64,000 nt of DNA from Mobula hypostoma (taxonomy: Eukaryota), in NCBI RefSeq assembly GCF_963921235.1, contig NC_086108.1, positions 64,234,001 to 64,298,000 of the forward strand, read 5' to 3'. The notes under the pieces were generated by a model. The model was not told the origin of the DNA. It saw nothing but the letters and a program-made list of their open reading frames with translations, and made no database searches. Numbering within the stretch: the first letter of the stretch is position 1; the number at the start of each line of letters is the position of its first letter. The position numbers were made by a program, and so were the translations under genes. Positions 3,182 through 64,000 of this stretch are shown here, in pieces.

Positions 3182-6100
3182 ATGGAACGTGCACTGAGAC
3201 CCGACAAGTTATACCTCGACCCGCAAACACCTGAAGCTGAAAACGCTTTTGAACTCTGACTGGCTTGCTTCGAATTGTACCCAGAGGAGATTAAAGCGAC
3301 CAACCCCGCAGCGGAGCACAGAGTTCTATTCTCCGGGGTCAGTCCAAGGGTCTACTCGATGATCAGAGACCAGCCGAGCTACGACAGCACGATGAGCGCA
3401 CTCAAAGGACAATACCTGCGGCCACTAACCACCGTCTATGCACGGCACCGATTAGCGACTCGGTACCAGCAACCTGGGGAATCAAGTGCTGTGTTTGTCT
3501 GGACACTACAGACACTCGTGCGAGCCTGCAATTGCCAGGGGCTGACGGCAGGACAGCATGCAGCCTAGTGAGAGACTCCTTCGTCATGGGGACCAGGTCA
3601 GTGTATGTGAGCCAGCGGCTGTTGGAAAAAGCTGATCTTACCTTAAGTTCGGCGATCGAGCTGGCCGACACGCTGGAGGCTGCTCTGCACAACTCTGAGG
3701 CTCTCCAGGCACGCGATCCCCCGATGGCCTCGTGGGCGCTGCAGACCCCGCAACCTGCCGGCAAATCGACCTTGGCTGCTGCCAGTTGCGAGTCCGCGAA
3801 GTGCTACTTCTGCGGACTGGAGAAGCACCCCCAGAAACGCTGCCTGGCCCGAGAAGCTACCTGCTCCAGCTGCGGAAAGGAGGGCCACTTCGCCAAGGTC
3901 TGTAAGTCCAAACCACGAGCGGGATCGAGCAGTGCCGTGTGCAAGACATGGGGGTCGCCATCTTCCCTGCACGCCGCCACCACGTGTGAGACATGGGGGC
4001 GGCCATCTTGGTTGGCGCCACCTCCCACTGCCTACGACCAACGGGTGCTCACGGGGCACCCCACCGCGCCGGACCAAGACAGCGACTCAACCCTGGCCTC
4101 CGTGACCCTCGACCAAAGCGCTCCCCACCAGCTCACAAGGTCAATGATGGACATCCTGGTGGAGGGGCACAGGAAGAGCTGCCTGTTTGACACGAGCTGC
4201 ACGGAGAGTTTTATCCACCCAGACACGGTGCAGCATTGCGGACTCGCAATACGACCGGTAAGTCAGAGGGTCGCAATGGCTTCTGGCTCACATACAACAG
4301 ACATCTGGGGGGGATTGTGTAGCGACGCTAGTGGTGCAGGGCACAGGATATCGAGACTTTACGTTACTGGTCACGCCTCAACTGTGTGCCCCTGTGCTAT
4401 TGGGGCTCGACTTCCAGAGCCACCTGAAAAGCGTGATAATGGAGTATATTGGACCCCTCCCACCAATTACTGTCGTAAATCCCCAGTTTTGTAGGGATAC
4501 GTCACATACCCCACTACTGACCACACACACACACCGACCTGCACATCCCACCCAACACCATGCCAACTGCCGCTCTACCAACGCCACTTGCGGCCTCTCC
4601 ACCCTCAAGATCCCTCCCCCACCGCTGTTCACCAACCTGACCCCCGACTGTAAACCTGTGGCAACTAAAAGCAGGAGGTACAGCGCGGGGGACAGAGCCT
4701 TCATTAAGTCGGAGGTGCAGCGGCTGCTCAGGGAGGGGGTCATTGAGGCAAGCACAAGTCCTTGGAGGGCGCAGGTGGTCATTGTTCGGAACAGGGAGAA
4801 GAATAGGATGGTCATGGACTATAGTCAGACCATCAATAGGTTGACACAGCTCGACGCGTACCCTTTACCCCGCACCGTGGATATGGTCAGTCAGATAGCA
4901 CAGTACAAGGTGTACTCGACCATAGACCTAAAATCCACTTACCATCAGCTCCCCATCCGCCGGGAGAACCGCCCTTACACTGCCTTCGAGGCGGACGGCA
5001 GGCTTTATCAATTCCTGTGCGTCCCCTTCGGTGTCACGAATGGTGAATCTGTCTTCCAGAGGGAAATGGACCGGATGGTGGACCAGTGCCAACTGAAGGC
5101 CACATTCCCACATCTGGATAACATCACCATCTGCGGTCACGACCGGCAGGATCACAACAATATCCTCCAAAAATTTCTCCAAGTGGCCAAAGCTTTGAAT
5201 CTCACCAATAACAAGGACAAGCGTGTGTTCGGAACCACCCAACTTGCTATCCTTGGATGTGTCGTGGAAAACGGAGTCATTGGCCCTGACCCCGACCGTA
5301 TGCGCCCCCTGTTGGAACTCCCTCTTCCCAACACCCTCACAGCCCTCAAATTGTGCCTGGCTTCTTTTCATATTATGCCCAATGGGTCTCTAACTACACA
5401 GACAAGGCCCGCCCCCTGGTCAAATCCACCACATTCCCCCTCTCAGCCGAGGCCCGCGCGGCCTTCAGCTGCATTAAAGGGGACATTGCCACAGCAGCAA
5501 TGCATGCGGTGGATGAGGCCATTCCCTTCCAAGTAAAGAGTGACGCCTCCGACTTTGCGCTGGCTGCTACCCTCAACCAGGCGGGAAGACCGGTGGCGTT
5601 CTTCTCCTGTACCCTTCAAGGCCCTGAAATTCGGCACTCCGCAGTAGAGAAAGAGGCCCAGGCCATAGTGGAAGCTATTAGGCACTGGAGGCACTATCTC
5701 GCCAGCAAAAAGTTCACCTGCTAACTGACCAGCGCTCAGTCGCATTCATGTGTAGTAACCAACAGTGGGGCAAAATTAAAAATGATAAAATTCTGAGGTG
5801 GAGAATCGAACTCTCCATGTACATCATGTACATCATGTACATCATGTACAGGCCTGGGAAGCTCAACGAGCCCTCCGATGCCATATCCCGGGGAACGTGC
5901 GCCAGCACGCAGATTGACCGGTTATACGCCCTACATGTAGATCTTTGCCACCCGGGGGTCACCCGGCTTTTCTACTTAGTGAAAGCCCGGAACCTGCCTT
6001 ACTCCCTTGAGGAGATCAAGACGATGACCAGGGACTGCCAAGTCTGCGCAGAGAGCAAACCACACTTCTACCGACCCGAAAAGGCACAACTCATCAAGGC

Positions 6101-6959
6101 CACCCGCCCCTTTGAGCGACTGAGTGTTGACTTTAAGGGCCCCCTTCCCTCCACTGACCGCAATGTGTACTTTCTTAACGTTATCGACGAGTACCCGTGG
6201 TTCCCCTTCGCCATCCCCTGCCCCGATACCACTACTATGTCAGTTATAAAAGCCCTGCGCAAGCTCTTCACTCTGTTTGGATACCCATGCTATATCCACA
6301 GTGACAGAGGGTCCTCGTTTATGAGTGACGAGCTGCGCCAATACCTGCTGGCTAGGGGAATTGCAGCTAGTAGGACCACGAGCTATAATCCCCGGGGGAA
6401 TGGACAAGTAGAGAAGGAGAATGGCACGGTGTGGAAATCCACACTCTTAGCCCTCAGGTCAAAGGGACTGCTGGTCTCCCGCTGGCAGGAGGTCCTTCCC
6501 GAGGCACTCCACTCCATCCGCTTCCCGTTATGCACATCCACCAATGCCACCCCTCATGAGCGGCTCTTTTCTTTTCCCAGTAAGTCGACCACTGGGACCA
6601 CCCTACCAACTTGGCTTACGTCCCCGGGGCCAGTCTTGCTCCGGAAACATGCGAGGAGCGATAAATACTCCCCGATGGTCGAGAGGGTGCACTTACTTCA
6701 TGCGAACCCCCAGTATGCCTACGTGGTTTTACCTGATGGGCGGGAGGACACGGTCTCCATCCGTGACCTGGTGCCCACAGGAGCACTGGTCTCCTACCCT
6801 GAACACTCCATGGTGACTATTAACCCCGTATCCACCGATATATATACCCACCAGACACCGCGCACTCCAAGCCCTACACAGACGCCACACAACACTCCCA
6901 TACCGGGCGCGATGCACACACATGAGGGATTAACAACACCTAACGTGCTAACACCTTAA
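3182..6959 (+). pseudogene. Gypsy gag-pol, broken by one premature stop and about four frameshifts
   Basis: ATG at 3182, TGA at 3257; two zinc knuckles (CYFCGLEKHPQKRC, CSSCGKEGHFAKVC); protease LFDTSCTESF; RT IDLKSTYHQL...PFGVTNG...HLDNITI; RNase H SDASDFALAATL; integrase HVDLCHPG...CQVC, VDFKGP, HSDRGSSF, NGQVEKEN. Confidence 0.93.
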
Positions 6960-7111
6960 GTCAGGCCGGAGCCAGCACAACCGCCATCGCCGGTGCAATT
7001 ACCACCGGTGTTACGTAGATCACAGTGACGGACTCGACCGCCTGATAGACTTAACCTGTAAATATACTTCTTGTAAGTATTGTCAGTCACTTCACCCCGC
7101 GGGACTCTTTT

Positions 7112-8026: not shown

Positions 8027-8305
8027 CCATATAACCATATAACAATTACAGCATGGAAACAGGCTATCTTGGCCCTTCTAGTCTGTGCCGAACTCTTATT
8101 CTCACCTAGTCCCACTGACCTGCACTCAGCCTATAACCCTCCATCCCTTTCCTGTCCATATATCTATCCAATTTAACTTTAAACGACAACATCGAACCTG
8201 CCTCAACCACTTCTGCTGGAAGCTCGTTCCACACAGCTACCACTCTCTGAGTAAAGAAGTTCCCCCTCATGTTACCCCTAAACTTCTGCCCTTTAACTCT
8301 CAACT
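8027..8305 (-). mobile_element. CR1 3' fragment inserted into the Penelope-like element
   Basis: Minus ORF RGNFFTQRVVAVWNELPAEVVEAG; (AACCATAT)n tail; flanked by candidate duplication AATGACAAA at 8018-8026 and 8316-8324. Confidence 0.85.
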
Positions 8306-8745
8306 TTCATTCAAAAATGACAAAAGTAATGTGGTGTACAGGGTCACCTGTGGAGACTGCAATAAGAACTATGTCGGCCAGACAGGACGTAAACTCTCCA
8401 CTCGTTTACAGAAACACAAACTGGTGGTATTGGAGTCATTATCCATATTTTCTAATCCTGGTACATGAAAGCCAAGAAGGACAGCACTTTAACTGGGATA
8501 CCACAGAGGTTCTGTCGCAGGCAAACAAGAAGCAGGCATGAGAATTTTTAGAAGCGTGGTTCTCTTCTGATAACCCTGTAAGCAAACATGTCAAAATAGA
8601 TGCCATCTATGAACCCCTAAGAACCAAAGAAAAGCGGGCCAATAGAAATCAAAAGTCAACTGAACGGGTAGCCAATCAGGACCAAACCTAGTGAATGGGG
8701 TCACATATAAATGCGAGCACTCCCAGAGAGAAATACCAACAACAG

Positions 8746-17192: not shown

Positions 17193-17744
17193 CTCAGCCC
17201 CCATCAGGGTGTGCGTGGATCCCAGATACGTGGGCACTAAGTATCACTATGTGTCCAGGCTCTACCTATCTCCCTGGCTGCAAAAGATGGATCTGGCCCC
17301 TTTCTTGTGCAACACCCCCATCAGCTAGTCGTTGCCGCCATACCTGTCCTTCGTAGAAAAGTTCTTCCAGGTCAATGCCTTTGATCACAAGGCCATCAGG
17401 CAGTGGTTCGAACACAATGTCCTGCAGGTGAAGGATGAGATGGACTCAGTGGGGTGGTTCCCTGAGCAGACCGTCCAGTACGTCTGGCAAATTGCCTCAT
17501 TGCCAGAACTCACCAACAGGCACCAAGACCTCGCCTGGCTGGTGGTGAGAGGTGCGCTCCTTGTCAGATCCTTCCTGTATGCCCGGAACATCGTCTGCAC
17601 ACCCCACCGCCCACAGGAGGACTGCAGTGAGACGGAGACAATGACTCACCTCCTTGCACACTGTGGGTTCACGAAGAAGGTGTTGAGGAGGATGGAAGGG
17701 ACGGTGTCGAGATTCATGCCCAGAAGCAGCGTAACCGAGGACTC

Positions 17745-17990
17745 ATCTGTAGGAAGAGGTGCAGTTGACGTTTCAGGCCGAGACCCTTCGTCAGGACTAA
17801 CTGAAGGAAGAGTGAGTAAGGGAGTAAGGGAGTAATCCCTTACTCACTCTTCCTTCAGTTAGTCCTGACGAAGGGTCTCGGCCTGAAACGTCAACTGCAC
17901 CTCTTCCTACAGATGCTGCCTGGCCTGTTGCGTTCACCAGCAACTTTGATGTGTGTTGCTTGAATTTCCAGCATCTGCAGAATTCTTGTT
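17745..17990 (+). mobile_element. Short Penelope-derived fold-back element with hammerhead motifs on both strands
   Basis: 14-bp target duplication GTAACCGAGGACTC (17731-17744, 17991-18004); perfect 80-bp inverted repeat 17744-17823 and 17836-17915. Confidence 0.92.
17861..17896 (+). ncRNA. Minimal type I hammerhead ribozyme motif (mirror copy on minus at 17763-17798)
   Basis: AGTC-CTGACGA-AGGGTCTCGGCCT-GAAAC-GTC-AACT: CUGANGA and GAAA core with GUC triplet. Confidence 0.85.
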
Positions 17991-18647
17991 GTAACCGAGG
18001 ACTCCCTGATTTACAAGCTGTTCCCGGGGACGCACACAAAGACCAACATCTGGTGCTGCTGGCAGATCATCAGCTCTGTGAAGGACACTCTTTGGTCGGC
18101 CCGAAACTTGGTGATCTACCAGCACATGGAGATGTCCATGGCTGAATGCTGCCAGCTGGCACATTCTCACCTCCAGGAATACGTGCCGAGGGATGCACTC
18201 AAACTTGGTGCAGCCACCACAAGAGCCCGGTGGGGAAGGACCACAGTTTATGGTTTGTCATCCGCGGGAGTGGGAGGGGTTGGGTGGAGAGGATATACCC
18301 CTCATCAGCGGTGTGGATAGATGAATCAACATGGTGCCACAGGAGTGGCTGGAAATGTAGGAAGATATAGACCGTAAAGGAACTTCGGTAAAGAAATGAG
18401 AGTCAACGCCTGGCTTTTTATTGTAAATAAGTTTTATTCTTGACTAAAGTTTGAGAGTCAATGAATGATTAATTGTAAACATCTTTATTTTGAATAAGGA
18501 CTGAGAGTCAACGCATGATTTATTGTAAATAACTTTATTTATTGAATAAGGACTCAGTCTATGAATGATTTTTTTGAAAATGACTTTATTTTGTAATATT
18601 TCTGAATAAAGTGTATTTTTGGGGGAAAAAAATTACACTCGGCCCCC

Positions 18648-24909: not shown

Positions 24910-25575
24910 ACACAGACACGAGGAAATCTGCAGATGCTGGAAATTCAAGCAACACACACAAAAGTTGCTGGTGAACGCAGCAGGCCAGGCAGCATCTATA
25001 GGAAGAGGTACAGTCGACATTTCGGGCCGGGACCCTTCATCAGGACTAACCGAAAGAAGAGATAGTAAGAGATTTGAAAGTGGGAGGGGGAGGGGGAGAT
25101 CCGAAATGATAGGAGAAGACAGGACAGGAGGGATGGAGCCAAGAGCTGGAAAGTTGAATGGCAGAAGAGATACCAGGCTGGAGAAGGGAGAGGATCGTGG
25201 GATGGGAAGCCTGGGGAGAAAGAGAAGGGGGGGAGGGGAGCCCGGAGGGTGAAAAGCAGGCAAGGAGTTATAGTGAGAGGGACAGAGGGAGAAAAAAGAG
25301 AAAAAAGGGGGAAAAAATAAAAGATATATTTATAAAAAATTAAATAAACAAATAAGGGATGGGGTGTGAAGGGGAGGAGGGGCATTAACGGAAGTTAGAG
25401 AAGTCAATATTCATGCCAACAGGTTGGAGGCTGCCCAGACAGAATATAAGGTTTTGTTCCTCCAACCTGAGTGTGGCTTCATCTTGACAGTAGAGGAGGC
25501 CGTGGATAGGCATATCAACATGGGAATGGGACGTGGAATTAAAATATGTGGCCACTGGGAGATCTTGCTTTCTCT
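24910..25575 (-). mobile_element. Penelope-like element 3' part (endonuclease C-terminus, pyrimidine-rich UTR, hammerhead, terminus)
   Basis: Minus frame ...DMSIHGLLYCQDEATLRLEEQNLIFCLGSLQPVGMNIDFSNFR*; same terminus family as 17836-17990 and 62109-62265. Confidence 0.88.
25012..25047 (-). ncRNA. Minimal type I hammerhead ribozyme motif
   Basis: Reverse complement AGTC-CTGATGA-AGGGTCCCGGCCC-GAAAT-GTC-GACT with perfect AGTC/GACT stem I. Confidence 0.82.
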
Positions 25576-26511
25576 GGCGGACATTGCATCGCCTCTGATC
25601 TGGGCGGACATTGCATCACCTCTGATCTGGGCCGACAATTACGTGCTAGGCGGCACCTAATTAATTAGCATGTTTATTTCGGCTTTTTTCTTAAAGATAT
25701 GCTGTGTGCCTCCCGGCTACTGCTGCATTCTTTGTGAATCGGTACAGTATCTGTCCGGGGGCTGGGTGTTGGGGTGGTGGGACACGGGGGTGTCATCTCA
25801 TCATCGATCAGGGCAGGCAGCTCATCTTCTCCTATGACTGCCCACCTCGATGTCGAAGGTCGAGGTTCGTCGTCTGCTGTGGCTGATGTGGAAGGCTTGC
25901 TTGACTGCTGAACCTCGCACATTTTTCTATCATACAGTTGTTTGTAAGCACTCAAACCATCCTGCAAATATCCCCTAAACCTACGTACCCGTTCAAATTT
26001 AAAGTCGTACTTTATCATTGCAGCGAAAATCTCACACAGTTGCTTCACTTTCTGCATTCGGTTACAATCGGTTTCGATTGTTATCCCTTCCTCTTCCAAT
26101 TGCATCAACTCTTCATTTATCGGTTCTTGTTCATGGGATGCCAAAACCTCTTCAACATCATCTTCGTCAACTTCCACAAGCCAAACTCACTTTGTCCTTG
26201 CTTCGTTCACCAGGATCGAAACGCTTAATTATGTCCAGTTTTACGCTAAGTGTAACACTCTTACTCTTTCAGGCTTTTCCGACACCTTAGAACTCATCTT
26301 GCTAACAGCTGCTCAATGCAACGTGTTAAAGCAATGCCGTTCCGAATCCGGGGGAGAGCGGCTGCTCGGGGCGCGCGCTGATTTTTTATCGCACTCTGCC
26401 TTTCTTTGTAACAGTGAAAACAGCTTCTGAAAGCGAAAACAGGGTACTAATGTAGGTCTTTCGTAACAGTGAGGTTTCGTAAAGCGAATGTTTGAAAAGC
26501 AGGGGCACCTG
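25576..26511 (-). mobile_element. Tigger/pogo-type DNA transposon, internally deleted, one terminal inverted repeat
   Basis: Terminal repeat ...CGTAAAGCGAATGTTTGAAAAGCAGGGGCACCTG then TA at 26512; minus ORF EVDEDDVEEVLASHEQEPINEELMQLEEE resembles the Tigger transposase C-terminus; 27-bp tandem repeat at 25576-25629. Confidence 0.78.
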
Positions 26512-27392: not shown

Positions 27393-27759
27393 GACAAAAA
27401 AAGCTTTCAGAATAGCTGCACAGAATTTGAATGTAATCAATGATACAGATTTGACAGGCCTATGGAGTAGAGAGTCACCACCTTCCGAGTGAAGACATTT
27501 CTCCTCATCTCAGCACCAAATTGCACATCTCCTTTTTCCTTTTTCATAGGACCGCCTTTAGAATTGAGAATGACTGACTTCTTCTTTGGTTTATAGCAAC
27601 TGAGACCAGTATGGAACTTGTACTTTCTGCCTCAGGTGGGACAGAAGGAGCAGGTGAGCAGTTACTTTCTTGGGTGGTGCATTCCTTCCATAGAGCTCTG
27701 CTGTCAATACACAAACCCAAAGTTCTTCAAGAAAGTTTTGAATCCTTAAATCTTTGGGA

Positions 27760-27945
27760 GCAACACACAGAAAATGCTGAAGGGACTCAGCAGGTCAGGC
27801 AGCAACTATAGTGAGGAATAAATAATCGATGTATCGGGCTGAGACCCTTCATCAACATTAAAAAGGAAGGGAGAAGAAGCCAGAAACCAGACAGTAGGAG
27901 GAGGGGAAGGAGTATAAGCTAGCAGGTGACAGGTGCACAAACAGG
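27760..27945 (-). mobile_element. Degenerate Penelope-like terminus with a decayed hammerhead
   Basis: GCAACACACAGAAAATGCTG...CAGGTCAGGCAGCA...TCGATGTATCGGGCTGAGACCCTTCATCA. Confidence 0.65.
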
Positions 27946-44934: not shown

Positions 44935-45655
44935 AATAATTGGCATTGCTGCCCTCATCAATCATGGTATTGAGTACAACAGTAGGGACGTCATTTTAGA
45001 AAATGTACAAAATGTTGGTGAGACCACACGTTATTGTCTGGAGTTCTTGTGGCCTAATTATAAGAAGAATGTCATTAAGCTAGAAAGGATGCAGAAAAGT
45101 TTTGCAAGAGCAACAAAAAATCTGCTGGGGAAGCTCAGTGGATCAATCAGCATGTGCGGAGGGATAAGGAATTATCCATACTTCAAGCCAAAACCCTACA
45201 TCGGGGCAGATGCTGGTCAACCCACTGAGTTCCTCCAGAAGATTATTTGTTGCTCCAGATTCCAGCATCTACAGTCTCTTGTGTCTTAATAAGGATGTTT
45301 CCTTGACTAAGGGGCATGAGTTATAAGGAAAGCCTGTATTTGCTGGGGCTTTTGAGGGCTGACCTTATAGAGGTACAGTATATAAAATCATGAGGGGCAT
45401 ATATAAGATGAAAAGTTACAGTCTTTTGTTCCAGGCAGGGGAGTCTACACCTAGAAGGCATAGATTTATGGTGAGAGGAGAAAGCTTTAAAGAAGAATTG
45501 GAGGGGTATAATTTTCATACAGGAAGCAGTAAGTACTGTATATTAAACAGACTTATAGAGGAAGTAGTAGAAGAAATTTAGACATTAAGGAAAGGTAGGC
45601 AACTTGGTTGGCATGGATGAATTGGGCTGATGGACCCTCTATAACTTTACGACTC
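44935..45655 (+). mobile_element. Old CR1 3' fragment carrying a palindromic Penelope-like insert (45108-45285)
   Basis: LINHGIEYNSRDVIL, VIKLERMQKSF, HRFMVRGESFK; the insert has 46-bp imperfect inverted arms. Confidence 0.7.
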
Positions 45656-49122: not shown

Positions 49123-52100
49123 GTGAGTTGGCAGCAAAAGCTGTTTTTTTTTACTTTCCCTCCCTCTTTGACTGAATGTCCCAGACCTTGCATTCATCAA
49201 ATTAACATTTGATTTTCACACTATTCAGAGCTGTAATCTCACACTTTCAGTTTCTCCTCTATGCTTTTTGAACAATGACCACTGTATAGTAACCTGCCTA
49301 TCCTGGAATCGTGCAAGAAAGTACAAGTGATTGACAGGACAAAGTGTTAATTTTGTGTTTTTTTATACAAAGCATGAAATTAGAGCTGTACTATTTAGAT
49401 GTGTCTGTTGATCATGTAGACTTGCATGCAAGTTGGAGCATGTTTCAGAATGCTAGTGATTAAGTTTTTCAGTGACTTTGAAACTTAAGTTGCATTTATT
49501 GCTTTAAAACAGCTGCAAACAAAACTTAAGTATTTTCTTGCAACATTCAGAGTTAACTTGAGATTTGATCAGCAGTATCATGCTCTAAATGTTTCTATCA
49601 GTTACTACTTCTACATACGACTGATCCATAGTATTCTGTTTGTTTTCATTATATGGGATAATGTGTTCCTGTCAGTTTAAGTCATGTGTTTTGGAGCCTC
49701 TTTATATTATGTAGATTGTTAGCAACTTTACCTGTGGTTTGAGTAGTAGAATGGCTCCGGTGTGTAGCGCGGAGAGGTTAACATAAAATTCACAGTCAGT
49801 CGGGCCACACAACCTTTGACTTGCTGAATCTAAAAGGATACACGGAGTGCAGGAGGATGCACAATAGTCCATTGTAGCACGAGGTACAAATGAGTTCTGT
49901 TGTGTGGGGAGAAGGAGATGTGAAACATAATTGTGTGCTTCAGCCTGTGCATTAGCTTGCGATTCATTAAAAGTGATTATTTATTTTGGTCATTATTATT
50001 CTCGAGGCACACACAACTTCTGCCAATGCGAGGAAGGGAGGGGAGGGGTGTGAGGGAAGAAAGAGAAAAGGAGAAAATAAGTTTGTTGTTGGGACAATGA
50101 ATGCATTATTCTTTCACAACTGGACCGTAAACTTACTTGTTCTGCATCAATATCAGGATGGAGCCTGCAAGTGGATCTGTACAGCAGGTCTTGCTCTCTT
50201 TTCTCTGCTGGGAGGCTGAAATATTGTTGAATTCCTGGACAAGTTTTAGATACACTTTTGGAAATATGTTGTCTCATGGGGGGAATTAATGTGAAGAGTT
50301 TCAAGTCAAGGTATTCATGACCTCTCTCTCAGGGCTGGAGTCATGTCCATTTGTGTTCTTTCAAACCTGTGCTTTAAGATTGCTACTACATCCTTGGTCA
50401 GGAAAATACATGTCTGTACTACCTTCTTGCTATAATCAAGACGAATGGTAATAATACAAGTTCTGTTATGTCACTGCTAGATAAATTACAATGTGATAGC
50501 TATAATTATGGTAGAATTTATTTTCTGTAGGAGGTTTTGCTCCCTCCCCTGACTGCTGCTGTGAAAGGAGAATTTTATTTTTAATGAATCGTAAACATTT
50601 CAAAATAGAAAAGGAGGCGTTCCTTTTATTCCTCTGCATGTGCTTACCATTTCTTATCATTGAATTTCAATGGTGTGTTGTGCAAAAACTTTACAGAGGA
50701 GTGAACCATGTGAAGTTAATGCACAGCTGTTTTAAGGAAGATGTGCATGCAGTATTACTTTCTGGAGCACTTTTAACAACCTGCTTCTCATTTTGCCATT
50801 AAATTCAATGGGGGATAAAACTGATAATTATGTTGATTTCCATTGGATGACTGCACCTTTGGATTGAACGAATATTATGCAGTGCCTATATTTATTACTG
50901 CATGATTAGTGTTTAATGTCCTGCATATGTTAAATGCTGGGAATGAATGCTGTAATGAATTTTGTTCTTTTAAGGACTCAATAAGGTGCGGTATGCAGAC
51001 TATTTTCTCTCTCTTAGAGTTTAAACGACATGGAAAAGAATCTAAACATGCTGTGAAAACAAACCTCTTTGCATGAAAAATTTCTGAATTGATTTTTTTG
51101 TGGTCAACGGCAAAATGAGACTAAATTTAATAAGGCTGCACACTGTTCAAATGACCTGTACTCTCAGCAAGTATCTACACACAGCTGTGTTATTCTTATG
51201 AACTTTTTTTTCATTCTGTGTTTAAAAATGTGTTTTTAGTTTTGTTAGCAATTGGGAAGCAGCAAAGTTTAAGATGCGTCAGTATTTCTTCCTGTGAGAA
51301 AGACTATTGTTTTCAGAACTTTACAGTTTGAATTAAAGTACTGAAAAATTTTCCAAATCATTCTCTGAGTGAGTTATTTGCATTGATGTTACTAGTAGGA
51401 TGGTGTTGACATTTTCCCTCTTTTCATCTGTTCTCTTCCGCTTGATTGATAGATATGTTGTAGAAGTTATAACAACTAATTTTAACCCATTAAAATATCG
51501 GTGATTATTTGTTTCTGAATAGACTTTAAGTTACTGCATTATACTTCTGACATTCTGTTTGCTGATGTTCCGCCTTCCAAATAATTTCCCATGAATAGAG
51601 ATTATTAGTTATTTGGTTCTAAATGTATTAAATTGACCTGTGATTTATACACAAATTCAAACAGGAAAAGGGAGCAACTGCAGATTCAGATGAATAAAGA
51701 CTTGAAGAATATTTGACTCACTTGCAAGAATGTAAAATGTATTGATTTTCTCAGATATGACACATGTAGATAGGATTAGATGATTACATGCATTACATAT
51801 TATGATCAATTTGAATGTTCATTATGCCTGTAAAACAGGAACAGAGTTTAATATTCATAACATAGATAATAACAAATTTCTTTCTACACATGGAATTAAT
51901 AGCACGGAGAAGAATGGGCATTCTTGACCATTAAGTAAAATTATTTCTTCTAACATAGGGAACGGTTGTAAGGAAAGCACTCATCTAACACTGGGTAGCT
52001 AAATATTTACAGAATTATTATTGCTAATAATTCCAACGTGTGCATTTGTTACAAAATTGTCTAGGTAAGTGTGACTCATATAATCTGATGTTATCCATTT

Positions 52101-53239
52101 ATGATATTACGCACAAATGTAGCACATTCTCGTGCACAAAGGTATACTAGTGTGAGATAAAAATAATATTTAATTGTTACCAATACCTTACAAATTAAAA
52201 TTCAGCTGCAAACATTTGGACTCATTCATATGCTACTTCTGTATATAAAAAACAATATTTCTAGCATGATGTTGAGGCAGATCAGGTAATGTATTTGCTC
52301 TTGAGAGCATTCACTAATCTTATTGTTCACAACATTGTGTTTTGTTTTCTTTCAGCATAAGATATGACTTGCTTAAATAGTTTCTGTTTTCGTTAGGAGA
52401 GCTACTTCTCTTCGCCAGATTACCTTGCTAGGTGATTCACTATGATAAATATGATTTATTTAGATTTCCTCTGTGATACCGGACGGAACTCAGGCAGATG
52501 TGCATTGCTTTGCCAAAAACGTTTCGATTATAAACGATTGTCAGTTCATTCAATGCAGAAACAAAACAAATTTAAAAATAATTCCCGCTGAGGAAAAAAA
52601 AGAAGCAGCGGAACAAAATATTTTCTGCTGTTGTGTTTGTTGTGGGAGCACAATAAAAATGGGGTGAAGGTTAAAACTTAAACGTGGCGCTGACATTTGA
52701 TCGACGGTAGTAGATTGTCGGACACCACTCTTTATCTGATCTATTGCAATCATTTTTGCGAGTTCCCCTCCCTCATTTTGTTTTGCGTTGGGCATATTCA
52801 ATATGATTACCGTCCTCCCAGTACGCTTTCTTTTGTATGTAAACAAACCATTCCGTGTATTGGAACATTCTCAATCATTTCTGAGCAAGCTTCATTCATT
52901 TTATTACCTGTGATGTGTGTCCCAATAGATAGTGCTAAGCACTGACCCAAAGGTCCAACTGTATACGTGATGAAGCTAGGGATTTCTGCAAATGTTATTT
53001 GAATGCGGGAAACTTTGATCTCCGTAATTCAAGATTTGTGTAGTTTTTCCTTTGAATCTTCCCGGCAACAATCAGGTATCAGAATTACAGTTTTTTTTTC
53101 CCTTTCCATTCTGCTTGGGAATTATTCCATTTCCTTTATTTAAACAATTGTACAATGAGTGGAGGTCGTATCCCTGTATAGAGAAATAATTATTTTTCTA
53201 GCAATTTTTTTTACAAGTTTTAACCTCGCTGGTCCTTCT

Positions 53240-54059
53240 CCCAATTAAAGTTTCGAGTCTCCGTGTTATCATTGAAGGCGCGGTGTTGAACTCTGCAATT
53301 TACACGAATTTCGAGCAAAACGTCACGAGCAGAGAGGAGTCTTTGTCTGATACTGAGGTCGCTACACTCCGGGCTTTTCAGATCGAAAGCGCAGACTTAA
53401 ATTAGAGCGCATTCCGACGACCAGTTTCTGAACAAAATACGAGGTCTTTTACCAATAAATTAGGTACAATTAGTTTATTCATCCTTTGGCTCAAAGATGT
53501 GTAGGAAATACTTATTAGTTGCCTGAGTTTGTATGTAAATATTTGGCGGCACGCAGTGCCCTAATATCAATTTGATAACCGTACATGACAGCAGCATGCA
53601 AGGAGTTGCTCTGATGCATTGAGCACGATGTTCCAGTTATAAGGTTAATAACTACACCGACACTAAGAGATCCACGGGCACAGAAGGCAGTTTCCCCAAG
53701 TCTGAAAAAAAAACACGATTCTAATTCCGCCCTCCCCCACCTGCTCCAAACTTTTCTTACTTTGCGGGTAACCAAGAGAGAGAGAGAAAAAAAAGTTGTC
53801 TATCCAAGCTGTTAGCACGGCATCGCTTCTGCTGTGGTAGGCAATCTCAAGCAGCCATGGGCGCAGAGATAGAGTCTCATGCGCTTTGAAACGCTGCAGG
53901 AAACTAGAATAAAGGGAAAGAAAATTACCTCTCTCTGATCACCATTGTCACTCCACGTAAAACAAGTTAAACAGTGGCTCTATCTTAAATCTGTAGATTG
54001 TTATTATTTCCACGCCATCCTACTTTGAAGGGAACTCATACACCATCATGCAGGTAAAT
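53240..54059 (+). promoter_or_regulatory. CpG-enriched candidate promoter and first exon
   Basis: CpG visibly retained relative to flanks; CCAAT at 53452, GC-box CCGCCC at 53727, GA tract near 53775; donor ATGCAG then GTAAAT at 54054. Confidence 0.5.
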
Positions 54060-55959
54060 TACTTTAAAGTATAAAAACAGTAATTAAATCCGAATACAGT
54101 ATAGAGAATTGTGAAGGAGGCTGACATCCTAGCAGTTATTTCTTCTGAAGAAAATTTCTGCATCTAATTGTTGAGTTTAGTATTGCTATAACCCCTAGTG
54201 TTGCCTAACTATCTAACTGAGAAGAAACGCATTTCTTTTCAGTTTAATCTATTAGCGAGTTCTGTTTTAAATTCCTATGTTTCTGGCAGGACTGTGGAGC
54301 AGCTGTACTTTGTAGCTGGATCTCTCTCTACCAGTCGTCACAATTTCCTTAAATGCAATTCGGTCCTCGTCTTTCTTTTCCTGCCTGCCTTTACACTTTT
54401 TTTCCTGATTATTTTTAACGTGGATTTGTTATTCCAGTTTGCTTTTGTGCCTCAGTACCCGCTTTCCCTGTCTCCCTTTCTGTCGGCTTTTGGCTGTGTT
54501 TACCTTCGGCCTGAAGCGAAGGTTTTTGCATACATAAAGAGCTTGAGTCCAGCTTGGTCGGAGGAAATCTTCCTCCTGCGCCAGATAAGCTCTGAATCTA
54601 ATTTTACATTGTTACTGGGAATTTCCTCAGGGATTCTCCTGATCGAGTACCGTAACTTCAGCGAAACATCGGCGGAAGCTCCTTTTAAACTGGCTTTTCC
54701 ACCAATCTTCTGCTGCTTACGGTGAGTGATGAGGACATCGTCTTCCCCACCATTCACCTGCATAAGTATAACTTTGGAATGAAATCAACGCATCGCTTAA
54801 TTGCTTTCCACTCATTTAACTGCCTTCTTCGCCCTCTGTTTCAGCGCCTTATTTTTCACTTCTGTCTTTAAAATGGTGTTAACACTCTTCTCCCTTTTGT
54901 TCCTCTAGCTCTCAAACTTCAGATTTTAAGCAGCCCTCCTCCATATCTGTGCACAGTGCCACAACAATGCTTGTGGCTGTCTTATTCACTTAAGAAATAC
55001 AAGTTGTCATGACATCGCCAGCTGCTTTGCCAGGCAAGAGTTTACTCCAGATTTGAGGTTAATCAACTGCAAATTCCATTAGCTTCATACAGAGCAAAAA
55101 CTACCAGGCAGATGGATCCATATGTGAGCCAGCAGTCAGGTGCAAGTGAGCAGAGCTGTCCATCAGGTGTGCTCTGCACTCATTGGAACATACACTAACC
55201 AGCATGACTAGGAGGATGAGCAGGACTCCATTGAGTCTAGGTATGACAAGTACACCCACACACGGACTTTCATATGTCTGCATTCACACTGATTTCTTTG
55301 CCTCCTTTGATACCTCTGAGTTTTATTATCGTAATTCTATTCAGTTAAATATCACGAAAAGATTCCAATGTTCCATATAAATTCGGCTTTGTCTTATTGC
55401 TAGAAATGTTTCCTGATAGATAGACAGATAGATAAAGAGAGTGGGTAAGAGATTCTATTTGTTGTTAATACCATTGGGATGATTATTGTCCTCCAATATG
55501 GATCATATTATTTTGCACCACTAATTGAGTGTAAATACTGAGCTTAAATTCTGTGTCTTTTCAAGAGTGGCATGGGAGCTATCATAATATTTGCCTGAAA
55601 GAAGCAGCAAGAACTCAGGTTTAATGTACACATCACACAGGTGTAGTTTGGAGCTATGCAGCAAGATTTCCCTTGAAACTTAATACCTTTGTAGTCTAAC
55701 CCGATAAATGCTTTTCATTGCAAGTCACATAAATGAAAGGTTATTAAGAGAATAGGAAGAAACAGAAGATGATATCAGAATCTAAATTAATTGTAACATG
55801 TTAAATAAAATCTCACTTAGAAAATAAAATGATGCCAACATAGCATGCCCACAAGACAAGCTGCCTTGAAAGGAGTTTTTAATTTTCACAGCAGTACTGT
55901 TTTTACTGCTCCATTGGCACAGGGGAAAAAAAAATCTCATTGGAGTGTAATCAAATAAG

Positions 55960-57429: not shown

Positions 57430-60060
57430 AGGTGTAAGCACGGCGGCCACTGTTGGAGTCAGAGTTAGAATGGTCAGGCTTTGGCTCAATGGGCTTCAGT
57501 GAGAAAGGCAAGGTCTGTGTGTGACTCAAAGATTTCAGAGGAAAGGCACAGGTAAGAACAGGTGAGTTTTTTTATCGTCTGTAAATCATTAGTCCTTAGT
57601 TCAATGTAGGTAAGATAGTTAAGGTGGTGGAATGCTCCTCCTCTGAGATGTGGGATTTCAGAGTACCTGGCAGTCTCCTTGATGCCAAAGGCTGTGATGC
57701 ACATTGGCACTAATGACATAAGGGGAAGACGACCCACACATAGCATATAGGGAATTAGGAAAGAGGATGAAGAGCAGGACCTCCACGGTGGCAATCTCTT
57801 GGTGCCAGATGCTAGTCAGGGTAGGAATAGGATAATAGTACAGATGAATGAGTGGCTGAGGAACTGATGCAGGGGACAGGTACAAGATTGCACATGCACC
57901 AGAAAATCTGCAGATGCAGGAAGTCCAAAGCAACACACACAAAATGCTGGAGCAACTCAGCAAGTCAGGAAGCATCTATGGAAAATACTAAACAGTTGAA
58001 GTTTTGGGCCAAGATCCTTCTTCAGTACTGAAAGGGAAGGGGGAAAGTGCATGAATTAAAAGATGGTAAGTGAAACCAGATGGTGGGAAAGGTAAAGGGG
58101 GAGGGGCAGTTGCACTACTAATGAGAGACAATATCAGGACTGCACTCAGAGGGGACATAGGGTAGAACTCAAAAACAGGAATGGTGCAATCACTCTAATG
58201 GGATTGTACTACGGACACCCCAATATCCACAAGGACACCGAGGAACAAATATGTAGGCACATTATGATTTAAAAGCAATTTCCCTGATATAAACTGGGAC
58301 CTTCTTAGTGCAAATGGTTTTGCTGGGGAAGAACTTGTTCGGCACATCCAGGAAGGATTCTTAAATCAATATATAGATAGTCCAACAAGAGGCGGACTGT
58401 ACTAGAGCTAGTGTTGGTTTATGAGCTGTTTGTTTGAGCTGTTAGGGAACAGTAACCAGAACTCCTTAATCTTTTAAGATAGCTACAGATAAGCTAAACA
58501 CAGAGCTTATGAGAGAGTATTAAATTGGAGCAGGGCAAATTACAAAAACGTTAGGCAGGAACTAGGGAACGTTCATTGGGAACAGCTGTTTTTGGGCAAG
58601 AGCGCGTCCGACATGTGGAGAGTGTTTAAAGACCAACTGCACAGAGTATAGGACAGTTATGTTCCAGTCAGAAGGAAGGACAAGGATGGCAAGGTAAAAG
58701 AAACTTGGATGTTGAGGGAGGTATTGTAATGCTAGGAGTATTATGAACAAAGGTGATGAACTTAGAGCATGGATCAGTATATATCAGGATGTTTTAGCCT
58801 TTACGGGCATTTGGTTGAGAGAGAGGCAGGAATGGGTGTTATAGGGATAGGAATGGTCAAGAAGGAAAAGAAGTACGTAAACTTTTGGGGGCTCCAATCA
58901 AACAGAGTCCTGGAAGATTATACAGAAACCAGAAATGAACTCAAGAAATTAATTAGGGAAGTCAGGAGGGGCCATGAAAAGTCTTGGCAGGCAGGAATAA
59001 TGAGAATCCAAAGGCATTCGATACATAAAAGAGCAAGTGGATAACTAGGGAGAGGGTGAGACCACTGAAGTATAAAGGGTGGAATATTTGCCTGGGTGCA
59101 AAAGACATGGGTAAGGTCCTTAATGAGTACTTTACATCAGAATTTACCAAGGAGAAGGACGTGGAGGATAAGGAGATATGGTGCTGACAGTATTAGGGCT
59201 GGGGCATTTCAAAGTAAAGTTGGAGAAGAAGTTGAAACTCTTAAAGAGCTTTAAGGTGGATAAATCCCCAGGGCCTGATGGGATATATCCCAGCTTATTG
59301 AGTGAGGCGAGCGAAGAAATTGCTGGAGCCATGACCAATATCTTTGTGTCCTCTCGAGCCACTGGCAAGGTCCCAGAGGACTGGAAATTATCTACTGTTG
59401 TTCCATTGTTCAAGCAGGGGAAAGGGGATAATCGTAGAACCTGTAGACTGGTGAGTCTCATTTCAATAGTAGGGTTGCTGAGAGAATTCTTAGGAATTTA
59501 GCATTTAGAAAATAATGGCCTAATTAGGGAGAGTCAGCATGGCATTGTGCAGGCAAATCATGTCTTACTAAATAGATGAATTTTTTGACGATTTGACACA
59601 GGTGATTGATGAAAGTAGAGCTGTGGAAGTTATCTACATAGATTTTAGTAAGGCATTTGACAACGTCTCTTATCGGAGGCTCATCCAGAAGATTAAGATG
59701 AATGGGGTTCGTGGTAAATTGGCTGTTTGGATTAGAACTAGCTTGTCCATAGAAGACAAGGGACACTGGTTGAAGGAACGTCTGTGATTAGTGATGTTCC
59801 ACAAGCATCTGGACTGGGACCTCTGGTGTTTGTAATGTATATATATGACCTGGATGAAAATGTATATAGGTGGGTTATTAAGTTTGCAGATGAGCTAAAG
59901 ATTGGTGATGTTGTAGATAGCACAGATGACTGGCAAAGAATAGAGTAGGATATAGATCAGTTGTAGATATGGGCATAGAAATAGCTTAAGCTGGCCAACT
60001 GTGAAGTGTTGCACCTTGATAGAAATATTACACTGTTAAGGGTAAGATCCTTAATGGAAA
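57430..60060 (+). mobile_element. Decayed CR1 with 5' UTR and ORF1 remnant plus ORF2
   Basis: HIGTNDIG esterase-like motif near 57700; VDKSPGPDGIYPSLL, AVEVIYIDFSKAFDNV, KFADELKIG. Confidence 0.85.
57893..58110 (-). mobile_element. Degenerate Penelope-like terminus inserted in CR1
   Basis: GAAAATCTGCAGATGCAGGAAGTCCAAAGCAACACACACAAAATGCTGG...TTTTGGGCCAAGATCCTTCTTCAGTACT (decayed hammerhead). Confidence 0.7.
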
Positions 60061-60077
60061 CACGCAGGAAACACACA

Positions 60078-60160
60078 CGGAAAGAGAAGTCAATATTTAT
60101 GCCATCAGGCTGGAGGCTCCCCAGATGGATTATAAGGCTTTGCTTCTCCACCCAAGGGTG
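60078..60160 (-). mobile_element. Penelope-like endonuclease C-terminal fragment
   Basis: VEKQSLIIHLGSLQPDGINIDFS, homologous to 25385-25470. Confidence 0.65.
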
Positions 60161-61720: not shown

Positions 61721-62108
61721 AGGATGGATAGATGCAATTTCAGCCCCACTTTGTAGTCAACTACTCTACCCTTGTTTTCAAAAAGATTTATATTATTTAT
61801 AGACAGCTAGAAAGGAAGGCAACTGCAATATTAGCAGTTATTTTGAGAGGATATAAATGCAAGGATGTAATGCTGAAACTTTATAAGGTATTGGTCAGAT
61901 CACACTTGAAGTATTGTGGCAGTTTTGGGCTCCTTATCGAAGAGAGGGTGAGCTGGCATTGAAGAGGGTTCAGAGGAGTTCCAGGAGAATGATCTCAGGA
62001 ATGAAAGAGTTTACTTATGAGGAGCATTTGGTGGCTCTGGGCCTATATTCACTTGAGATTAGAAGAATTTGGGGAGATCTCATTGAAACCTATCGAATAT
62101 TGAAAGAT

Positions 62109-62341
62109 GCAAACACGAGGAAATCTGCAGGTGCTGGAATTTCAAGCAACACACATAAAAGTTGCTGGTGGATGCAGCAGGCCAGGCAGCGTCTCTAGGA
62201 AGAGGTACAGTCAACATTTCGGGCCGAGACCCTTTGTCAGGACTAACTGAAAGAAGAACTAGTAAATCTCTTACTAGTTCTTCTTTCAGTTAGTCCTGAC
62301 AAAGGGTCTCGGCCCGAAACGTCGATTGTACCTCTTCCTAG
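62109..62341 (-). mobile_element. Second short Penelope-derived fold-back element with hammerhead motifs on both strands
   Basis: 14-bp target duplication GAATATTGAAAGAT (62095-62108, 62342-62355); 71-bp inverted repeat 62195-62265 and 62271-62341 with 3 mismatches. Confidence 0.92.
62292..62327 (+). ncRNA. Hammerhead motif with a core substitution (mirror copy on minus at ~62209-62244)
   Basis: AGTC-CTGACAA-AGGGTCTCGGCCC-GAAAC-GTC-GATT; CUGACAA instead of CUGANGA in both arms. Confidence 0.72.
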
Positions 62342-64000
62342 GAATATTGAAAGATCTAGACAGAGTGGATGTGGAGAAGATGTTTCCTACAGGAGGCGGA
62401 GTCTAGGACCAGAGGGCACAGCATCAGAATGGAAGGACATCCCCTCAGAATAGAGATGAGGAGGAATTTTTTTAGCTAGAGGGTGGTGAAATTTATTGTG
62501 ACAGACAGCTGTGGAGGCCAAGTCAATGGGTATATTTAAAGCAGAGGTTGATAGGTTCTTGATTCGTAAGGGTGTCAAAGGTTCTGGGGAGAAGGTAGGA
62601 GAGTGTAGTTGAGAGAGATAATAAATCAGCTATGATGGAAAGGCAAAGCAGACTCAATAGGTTGAATGGCCTAATTCTGCTCCCACGTCGCATAGTCTTA
62701 TGCTAAACTTATGAAACTTGAATATGATAGAAATACAGCTGATTAAAAACTGGAATCTCTGCTGGATAGGCGCTGGGCATTGCAAATCTCAAAGTCCACA
62801 GCCCGTGGACTTAATGTGATTTATTTACAAATGAGAATTTAGCACAAAAGAAACAAAGAAAAGCAGACAACATAATTTGCGGTTTTGAAGACAGAAAAGA
62901 TATGTGGATATAGAACGTAGGATTTTTTTAATAAACTGTACAATGCTGAGGTAGATTTTTGCTTTCAGGGCGAACCAACTGTCCAACCAACTGTCAAGTG
63001 CATCGACCAGCTGCCTGATGTGTCAGCTGGAGGCTCAGCCCATTTTGAGCACTAGGCTTCATTAACATTTATTTCAGAAGACTGTGTACACTCAGTGAGT
63101 CACTGTGCAGTTTTCTATCTTCAGACCTGTGCAATAGCACAGGGCCCAAAGACTGGTCGAACCATAAAAGTAGGTTGGATTTGTGATCATGGGAAAAGAT
63201 AGGGTTTGTAAACCTGTGCGAATGGCCAGATCCTACTGTATTTCAGAACCATGGAGGAGTTATCTGCAGACCTCCTGAGCTCAGAAAACTATCAAGGTAC
63301 TTTCTATTAATTTGAGTGTTCCATCATGGAAGATGCTCTGTACAGCAATTCATTAACTTGGCACTGGAGTATTACATAAAGATAGGACGATGGTCTGCAC
63401 ATATTAATGAGGCTTGCTGCTGTGTCATTCCACTCCATTGTCCTGTGAAGAAAGGCAATTGTTCGTGATGTCTACCGCAACCACACCTAGAACTGTTCAG
63501 TTTTTACTGGATGAAAAGAACTGACCCTCTTTTTAAATATTATGCCTTTGTGCCCTGGAGAGAGATTAATTGAGAATCTTCTGATGACTAAAATTTCTGC
63601 CTTGATAATTGTAAGCATTGAATCCATGTTTGTCCATGTACAATCTGTGGGAGCTTTGGGATGATTTTGTACAAGTAGGCAATACACTTCAGTAAACCAA
63701 CAAACTGCTCAGCACAGGGCTGGTTCCTACACTTGCAATGTGGGTGACCTTCTAAAGCAGGGGACTTAGAGGATTATTAAGTAGCAGGAGAATTGCTTTG
63801 CATGCATCGTGCATGTGAGATGAATTTCCAAGAATATGAAATTGAAAAACAGCAAAATAAAACAGTGCCTGCAGTTCAGTAGCAAAGCAGTTAAGTGTTC
63901 TGAGTAGCTTCTGTTAGCCAATGCATCTAGCTAACATTGGCATCCCTTGGACGGGTAAACAGAGCATCCAGATTCTATGACTACTGCATAATTTAGCAAT

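Follow-up and report, generated by a model that had tools for sequence, protein, structure and literature searches.

A 64,000-nucleotide stretch of Mobula hypostoma DNA, hereafter the window, carries at 62095-62355 a fold-back insertion that is a real, ordinary further example of the insertion layout known for Penelope-like elements (PLEs). It is a dead, truncated insertion whose product codes for nothing and in which both ribozymes are mutated. We give about an even chance to its having arisen de novo, with both ends of one staggered cut priming a cDNA and the two cDNA ends being joined via a 2-nt match.

The insert comprises 233 bp between perfect 14-bp target-site duplications on the plus strand (62095-62108 and 62342-62355, identical in sequence), and it interrupts a LINE fragment that we take to be CR1-like and whose sequence around the insert resembles other copies of the LINE reverse transcriptase end. 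All arms are numbered with the C of the hammerhead CTGA as +1. The long arm, 157 nt of PLE pLTR on the minus strand (62109-62265, C of CTGA at 62240), starts at -25, or at -23 without the AA shared with the other arm, and extends to +132, reaching the tail end of the family. The short arm is inverted relative to it (62264-62341, plus strand, C of CTGA at 62296), and its 78 nt of pLTR run from -32 to +46. This outer end lies about 50 nt before the tail-less end of the family, with about 80 nt missing, and sits at the foot of a predicted 8-bp helix (+47 to +54 with +106 to +113). The helix has a modest fold z of -1.0 to -2.5 for three family copies, and six of its eight predicted pairs are present in the 62-kb insert. 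At the turn (62264-62270, plus strand), an AA microhomology common to both arms (62264-62265) is followed by 5 unpaired nt belonging to the short arm. The paired arms (62195-62265 and 62271-62341) are 71 nt long and 96% complementary with a 5-nt spacer. The pair 62195-62341 and a second one at 17744-17915 are the two best among the 14 inverted pairs of the window, none of the remaining 12 exceeding 80%. Within the 62-kb insert the arms differ at 3 of 69 sites (-23 to +46); all three differences are C>T, two of them at CpG. An in-silico empty site, from which the insert and one duplication were deleted, can be aligned at 72-84% to five further LINE copies of the window, the alignments having 1-9 gap openings.

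Sequence comparison identifies the arms of both inserts as the end repeat (pLTR) of an endonuclease-bearing GIY-YIG PLE, since they match an unfolded, 5'-truncated copy of the same family at 24912-25583 (minus strand) whose open reading frame ends in a sequence matching ray proteins with a weak GIY-YIG domain. This copy, which contains the GIY-YIG C-terminus and the pLTR, was used as the reference. Its ORF end shares 78-86% identity with four ray proteins, from Mobula hypostoma and Hypanus sabinus, and three of the four give a weak GIY-YIG match (E 5e-4 to 2e-3, below the Pfam cut-off). The long arm of the 62-kb insert is 90% identical to 24913-25068 of the copy over 156 nt, and the long arms of the two inserts and the unfolded copy are 87-90% identical among themselves. 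Of the features that define PLEs, continuity with an ORF of C-terminal GIY-YIG and presumed reverse transcriptase is provided via the ORF end of the unfolded copy, a single 14-bp duplication surrounds the whole unit in both inserts, the pLTR carries a minimal type-I hammerhead motif, and the family has two 3' ends 30-40 nt apart (an optional tail). An inverted partner that lacks the tail only is not seen in either insert, as the short arms end at +46 and +50/51. No target duplication was found for the unfolded copy. A different repeat with a 170-codon ORF and no Pfam match (25584-26200, minus strand) adjoins its 5' end, with a short tandem duplication at the border between the two.

The family is abundant: 84,134 contigs of the public DNA run X1, which contains 53% of the window's sampled words and may represent a related species, align to the 741-nt reference. 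Abundance and breakpoint counts rest on contigs, two raw-read runs having given just 3 and 2 reads on the reference. Family 3' ends pile up in X1 contigs at 24914-16 and 24947-48, about 32 nt apart, which agrees with the tail reported for PLEs (PMC8557442, PMC11167929), and 724 contigs have a loose end at 24916, the place matching the tail end of the long arm. Letters typical of the subfamilies each account for about half of X1 depth (24960 A>C, 2.26M of 4.49M; 24998 A>C, 2.89M of 6.17M), indicating that the two inserts derive from two abundant subfamilies. DNA-pattern scans of viral, metagenome and prokaryote collections returned no copies of this pLTR. A protein scan found distant PLEs at 29 metagenome loci, none of them similar to it at the DNA level, and a protein scan of viral contigs found no PLE relatives. 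Another fold-back, older and formed by a sister PLE family, is embedded in a LINE of the window (45108-45287). Its antisense arm runs from about +97 to -2, and its sense arm begins at about +46 and continues to the tail end; a tail of about 31 nt is present on one side, and nothing but this tail is missing from the shorter arm. The sense arm of this fold-back starts at about the position where the short arms of both younger inserts end. Degraded sister-family fragments without a nearby inverted partner lie at 57891-58100 and 27759-27935 (both minus strand), 60077-60153 and 8082-8465, the last with a weak GIY-YIG match. For five other PLE fragments that were checked, no target-site duplication could be resolved.

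Minimal type-I hammerhead motifs lie in the long arm at 62208-62245 (minus strand) and in the short arm at 62291-62328 (plus strand). Both carry the CTGACAA variant reported in the preliminary description, which corresponds to G8A, and the long-arm motif shows further CpG decay. The core is intact in the sister insert and in the unfolded copy. G8A in both arms is a CpG change and does no more than suggest a common template. Rfam gave no hammerhead match at E ≤ 1, and the motif was identified by pattern and by comparison with PMC4209133; the eight Rfam matches obtained at E ≤ 1 were all below the gathering score and seven were generic miRNA-hairpin models. As a separate observation, 25046-25100 (minus strand) and the same positions in the arms of both inserts contain a pyrimidine tract and a branch-point-like word at about -23. 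Together with a CAG at -9 to -7 in both inserts, these resemble a 3' splice site immediately upstream of hammerhead stem I, comparable to that reported for the Drosophila Penelope intron (PMC4209133). Such a stretch could account for copies starting at the ribozyme edge.

The sister fold-back insert, at 17731-18004 (plus strand), belongs to another subfamily and comprises 246 bp between duplications at 17731-17744 and 17991-18004, inside a LINE with a zf-RVT match. Its inverted short arm (17745-17823) runs from +50 to -29, with the outer end at +50/+51, and is followed by a 10-nt templated insertion repeating adjoining arm sequence (17824-17833) and by the long arm (17834-17990), which runs from -31 to about +126 to +128. 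The paired arms (17744-17826 and 17833-17915) span 83 nt, are 99% complementary and differ at none of the 69 sites from -23 to +46. The host frame with the zf-RVT match continues through the empty site with one stop in 244 codons. Because this frame reads on and the empty site at 62 kb aligns to other LINE copies, both inserts are clean insertions. A protein search with the antisense translation located the sister subfamily's type at three other ray loci. They correspond to annotated isoforms of Mobula hypostoma (Tim8A, mago nashi and an uncharacterised gene), each with an exon from the antisense pLTR, matching 17745-17815 and 17845-17985 of the window, in what amounts to Alu-like antisense exonisation. 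All three exons stop at one place, about 10 nt before the turn, at a GT donor-like word, and there was no fold-back junction among the three exonised fragments.

Most of what the preliminary description had recorded of the pair was reproduced: exact 14-bp repeats around inserts of 233 and 246 bp, opposite orientation, different hosts (the presumably CR1-like LINE and the zf-RVT-bearing LINE), different subfamilies, and short arms that end within about 5 nt of each other (+46 and +50/51, 4-5 nt apart). The arms vary at 10-11 of 69 sites between the inserts, against 3 and 0 of 69 within them, and the junction sequences are not homologous. Two subfamilies and two non-homologous junctions imply two independent insertion events, which bears out the earlier view of a PLE reverse-transcription product formed independently of the sister. 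The claim of a shared turn, with sense arms starting at -32 and -31, stands in part. The 5' ends are -25 (long) and -32 (short) in the 62-kb insert and -31 (long) and -29 (short) in the sister; the further-reaching arms thus agree to 1 nt, but they are the short arm in the former and the long arm in the latter, and the match is otherwise 4-7 nt. In both junctions a cDNA ending in TT at -31/-32 continues as if paired with AA at -24/-25, this cDNA belonging to the short arm in the 62-kb insert and to the long arm of the sister. Remodelling of palindrome tips after the insertion event can occur and would obscure any deduction drawn from the junctions. Microhomology between target and template at the outer ends of the short arms is 1 nt in the sister insert and none in the 62-kb insert.

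In the favoured mechanism, the element's endonuclease would cut the target 14 nt apart, the duplication being the visible trace of this step. One target end would prime reverse transcription at the family's usual tail end (+128 to +132), an end seen in the inserts, with priming proposed by analogy with PMC11167929. The other target end would prime near +46 to +51, where the short arms are seen to end, just 5' of the predicted helix. Both cDNAs would stop near -25 to -32, perhaps, on slight grounds, where the template begins at an initiator-like word. TT at the tip of one cDNA would then anneal to AA 4-5 nt inside the other, as the junction letters allow, and repair would fill in; slippage would have added sequence at the junction of the sister insert. 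In vitro, the anole PLE protein, a predicted dimer, cuts both strands and extends them from internal starts that have no homology to the target (PMC11167929), and inverted 5'-truncated partners with junction palindromes are described as typical of PLE insertions (PMC8557442, PMC3846280). The short-arm priming is the costliest step. Positions +46 to +51 correspond to neither family 3' end seen in contigs (24914-16 and 24947-48) and no start-site difference between the strands was seen in the published assay (PMC11167929), so that a third start site is needed. The 2-nt microhomology is weak evidence of the route, as a match of 2 nt or more is available at 59 of 195 positions.

Snap-back or self-priming of a single cDNA is possible and clearly less probable. 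One cDNA (or antisense RNA) would end near -31/-32, fold on a 2-bp stem, copy itself for 70-80 nt, stall at the helix near +47 and join the other target end, with the tip at 62 kb reworked later. Self-priming on an antisense template has been proposed for PLE palindromes by Arkhipova et al. 2013 (PMC3846280), and fold-back inverted duplications at breaks are known (PMC11724301; bioRxiv 10.1101/2024.12.14.628481), although those of yeast are mostly 5-34 bp (PMC11724301). The sister junction can be written wholly as iterative snap-back of the long-arm cDNA, and near-perfect palindromic centres would arise without the coincidence of two ends. Snap-back would also explain why the short arms end non-canonically at the helix foot, the helix being predicted in the cDNA too. 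However, the short arm of the 62-kb insert reaches 7 nt further 5' than its long arm, which calls for an extra deletion or a second cDNA. It is this reach, beyond what snap-back of the long arm could template, that favours two target-primed cDNAs.

Inheritance of the inversion is improbable. A source locus with an inverted pLTR before a direct pLTR would be transcribed, and reverse transcription from the tail site would pass the turn and truncate in the inverted arm, the hairpin spreading as a unit with no separate family. This explanation accommodates co-variation of the arms, either junction polarity and short-arm ends as plain 5' truncations; the shared G8A fits one template, and masters with inverted 5' pLTRs have been published (PMC3846280; PMC2377424). 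However, the junctions of the two inserts differ, which requires two masters with a nearly identical turn. The top listed strand-switch joints in X1, where contigs may break at perfect palindromes, have depths of at most 85 against 5-10 for ordinary contig pieces, and among the matches listed no joint, of high depth or otherwise, falls at -23 to -32. None of the three arm differences carries the A>G signature of a double-stranded RNA template, which speaks weakly against a transcribed hairpin.

The preliminary description also proposed a propagating non-autonomous, ribozyme-dependent hairpin family of retrozyme-like character, with small or circular RNA, which we consider very unlikely. Both inserts are short and non-coding, of like size and furnished with hammerhead motifs. 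Retrozymes are, however, built as tandem direct repeats with at least two complete hammerheads; here the arms are inverted, the junctions of the two inserts are not homologous, and the C3-G8 core is broken by G8A in both arms of the 62-kb insert. G8 is required for catalysis, as tested with G8C (PMC11167929). In the predicted transcript fold (-153.5 kcal/mol) the hammerhead motif would be fully paired with its complement and thus buried in the stem. No end of either insert falls at the predicted hammerhead cut (+28), which was accordingly rejected as a turn or end, and catalytic mutants left in-vitro insertion unaffected (PMC11167929). An assembly or library fold-back artefact, as palindromes can be, is hardly credible given the exact 14-bp duplication, the clean empty site, the three C>T arm differences and a second copy of like build with another junction.

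A modest hotspot for the turn, enriched genome-wide, has in our estimate somewhat less than an even chance; a universal or programmed turn is not supported. For a hotspot speak the further-reaching ends 1 nt apart, the same dinucleotide at both junctions, the proximity of the short-arm ends and an initiator-like word with its A at -32, one of four such words in 339 nt. Against it, the turn of the older fold-back (45108-45287) is at about -2/+46, and none of the 54 breakpoints among the matches listed (15 + 12 rows of 100 + 59, public contigs) falls at -23 to -32. Six of the 54 lie at +1 to -5, where they are confounded by divergence of a sister family, and three at +45 to +51. X1 depth has no step at -32 (2.72M in bin 25060-84, 2.76M in 25085-109), in a profile with roughly threefold noise. 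Assuming a uniform turn over 100-400 nt, a 10% short-arm match and a 20-50% chance of equal duplication length, coincidence is estimated at 0.00015-0.0075 per pair, or 0.04-2 such pairs over 275 stretches of this genome. Equal 14-bp duplications are unremarkable for one endonuclease. Of the stereotyped or programmed turn claimed initially, the nearness of the two turns therefore survives, on n = 2. A loose-end peak at 25047 (-4; 744 contigs) was rejected as a truncation hotspot because a sister family diverges there, and microhomology alone was rejected as insufficient to cause the shared turn. It is doubtful that the family makes a stereotyped minimal product, in which a dimeric enzyme would prime one target end at the tail site and the other at a third site at +46 to +51, the foot of the pLTR helix, and both cDNAs would extend to a fixed 5' end of the RNA, lying at an initiator that precedes the hammerhead by 32 nt. 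In the open-access literature no report was found of short elasmobranch PLE palindromes or of turn-position statistics.

The preliminary description further placed the insert downstream of an NFI exon, but no such exon was found. NFI peptide motifs gave no credible match, and no Pfam NFI family was detected in 150 of the 175 ORFs that lie beyond 41 kb and have 48 aa or more, nor in any of the 143 ORFs of at least 60 aa chosen outside six TE blocks below 41 kb; short exons could escape these searches. A candidate first coding exon lies at 54506-54733 (minus strand), a 76-codon ORF from ATG to a canonical splice donor, inside a repeat-poor, partly CpG-rich region (about 49500-55000) and with one unnamed homologue at 69%. 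If this exon is real, the 62-kb insert lies about 7 kb upstream of it, not downstream. At about 3300-6960 (plus strand) the window also contains a long, GC- and CpG-rich, LTR-retrotransposon-like gag-pol region with several open frames, apparently young.

The formation of inverted PLE insertions is stated to be unresolved (PMC8557442, PMC3846280). The two inserts have opposite junction polarity, pair TT with AA in the same way and have short arms that end at the foot of a predicted helix; they thus provide a cheap genome-wide discriminator between double priming, snap-back and inherited inversion. Should the product prove stereotyped, thousands of fossils would show where transcription starts and document double-ended priming in vivo, and the question of how inverted PLE insertions form would be answered.

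In L1 twin priming, the inverted piece sits next to the other piece and does not duplicate it, whereas the arms of the 62-kb insert overlap fully. Shared with that system are cDNA on both target ends, an inverted junction and a retained duplication (bioRxiv 10.1101/2024.12.14.628481). Non-LTR retrozymes (bioRxiv 10.64898/2026.07.22.740005) are likewise PLE-derived, non-coding and hammerhead-bearing, but are described as tandem direct repeats with at least two complete motifs, whereas the insert has its motifs mutated and its two arms inverted, and is flanked by a target duplication. The minimal type-I hammerheads of metazoan PLEs (PMC4209133) have the same core, short stems I and II and a palindromic stem III, and dual motifs 100-700 bp apart on opposite strands are reported there in Schistosoma; in the 62-kb insert the core is broken and the motifs are 56 nt apart. 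In the anole Poseidon element (PAc; PMC11167929), as would apply here, both strands are cut and extended from internal, homology-independent starts about a tail length apart, comparable to the 3' ends of this family about 32 nt apart. Neither a third start some 50 nt upstream nor a joined inverted product is described in the available text of that report, and its Fig. S2 (genomic ends) may bear on a third end.

The closest counterparts are the published head-to-head PLE insertions with a palindromic junction (PMC3846280, PMC2377424, PMC8969392). As in Pen2a_Av of Adineta vaga (PMC3846280) and the scheme in PMC8557442, the 62-kb insert has an inverted 5'-truncated partner joined at the 5' end through a palindromic junction, one duplication around the whole, a one-sided tail and a hammerhead in the pLTR. 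It differs from Pen2a_Av in being minimal, with no ORF and both arms inside the pLTR, and in a short arm that lacks about 80 nt and not just a 30-40 nt tail; an inverted partner without the tail is described as typical, not obligatory (PMC3846280, PMC8557442). The duplication is 14 bp, compared with 8-10 bp in the rotifer examples, and here, unlike Pen2a_Av, two subfamilies turn within 7 nt of each other.
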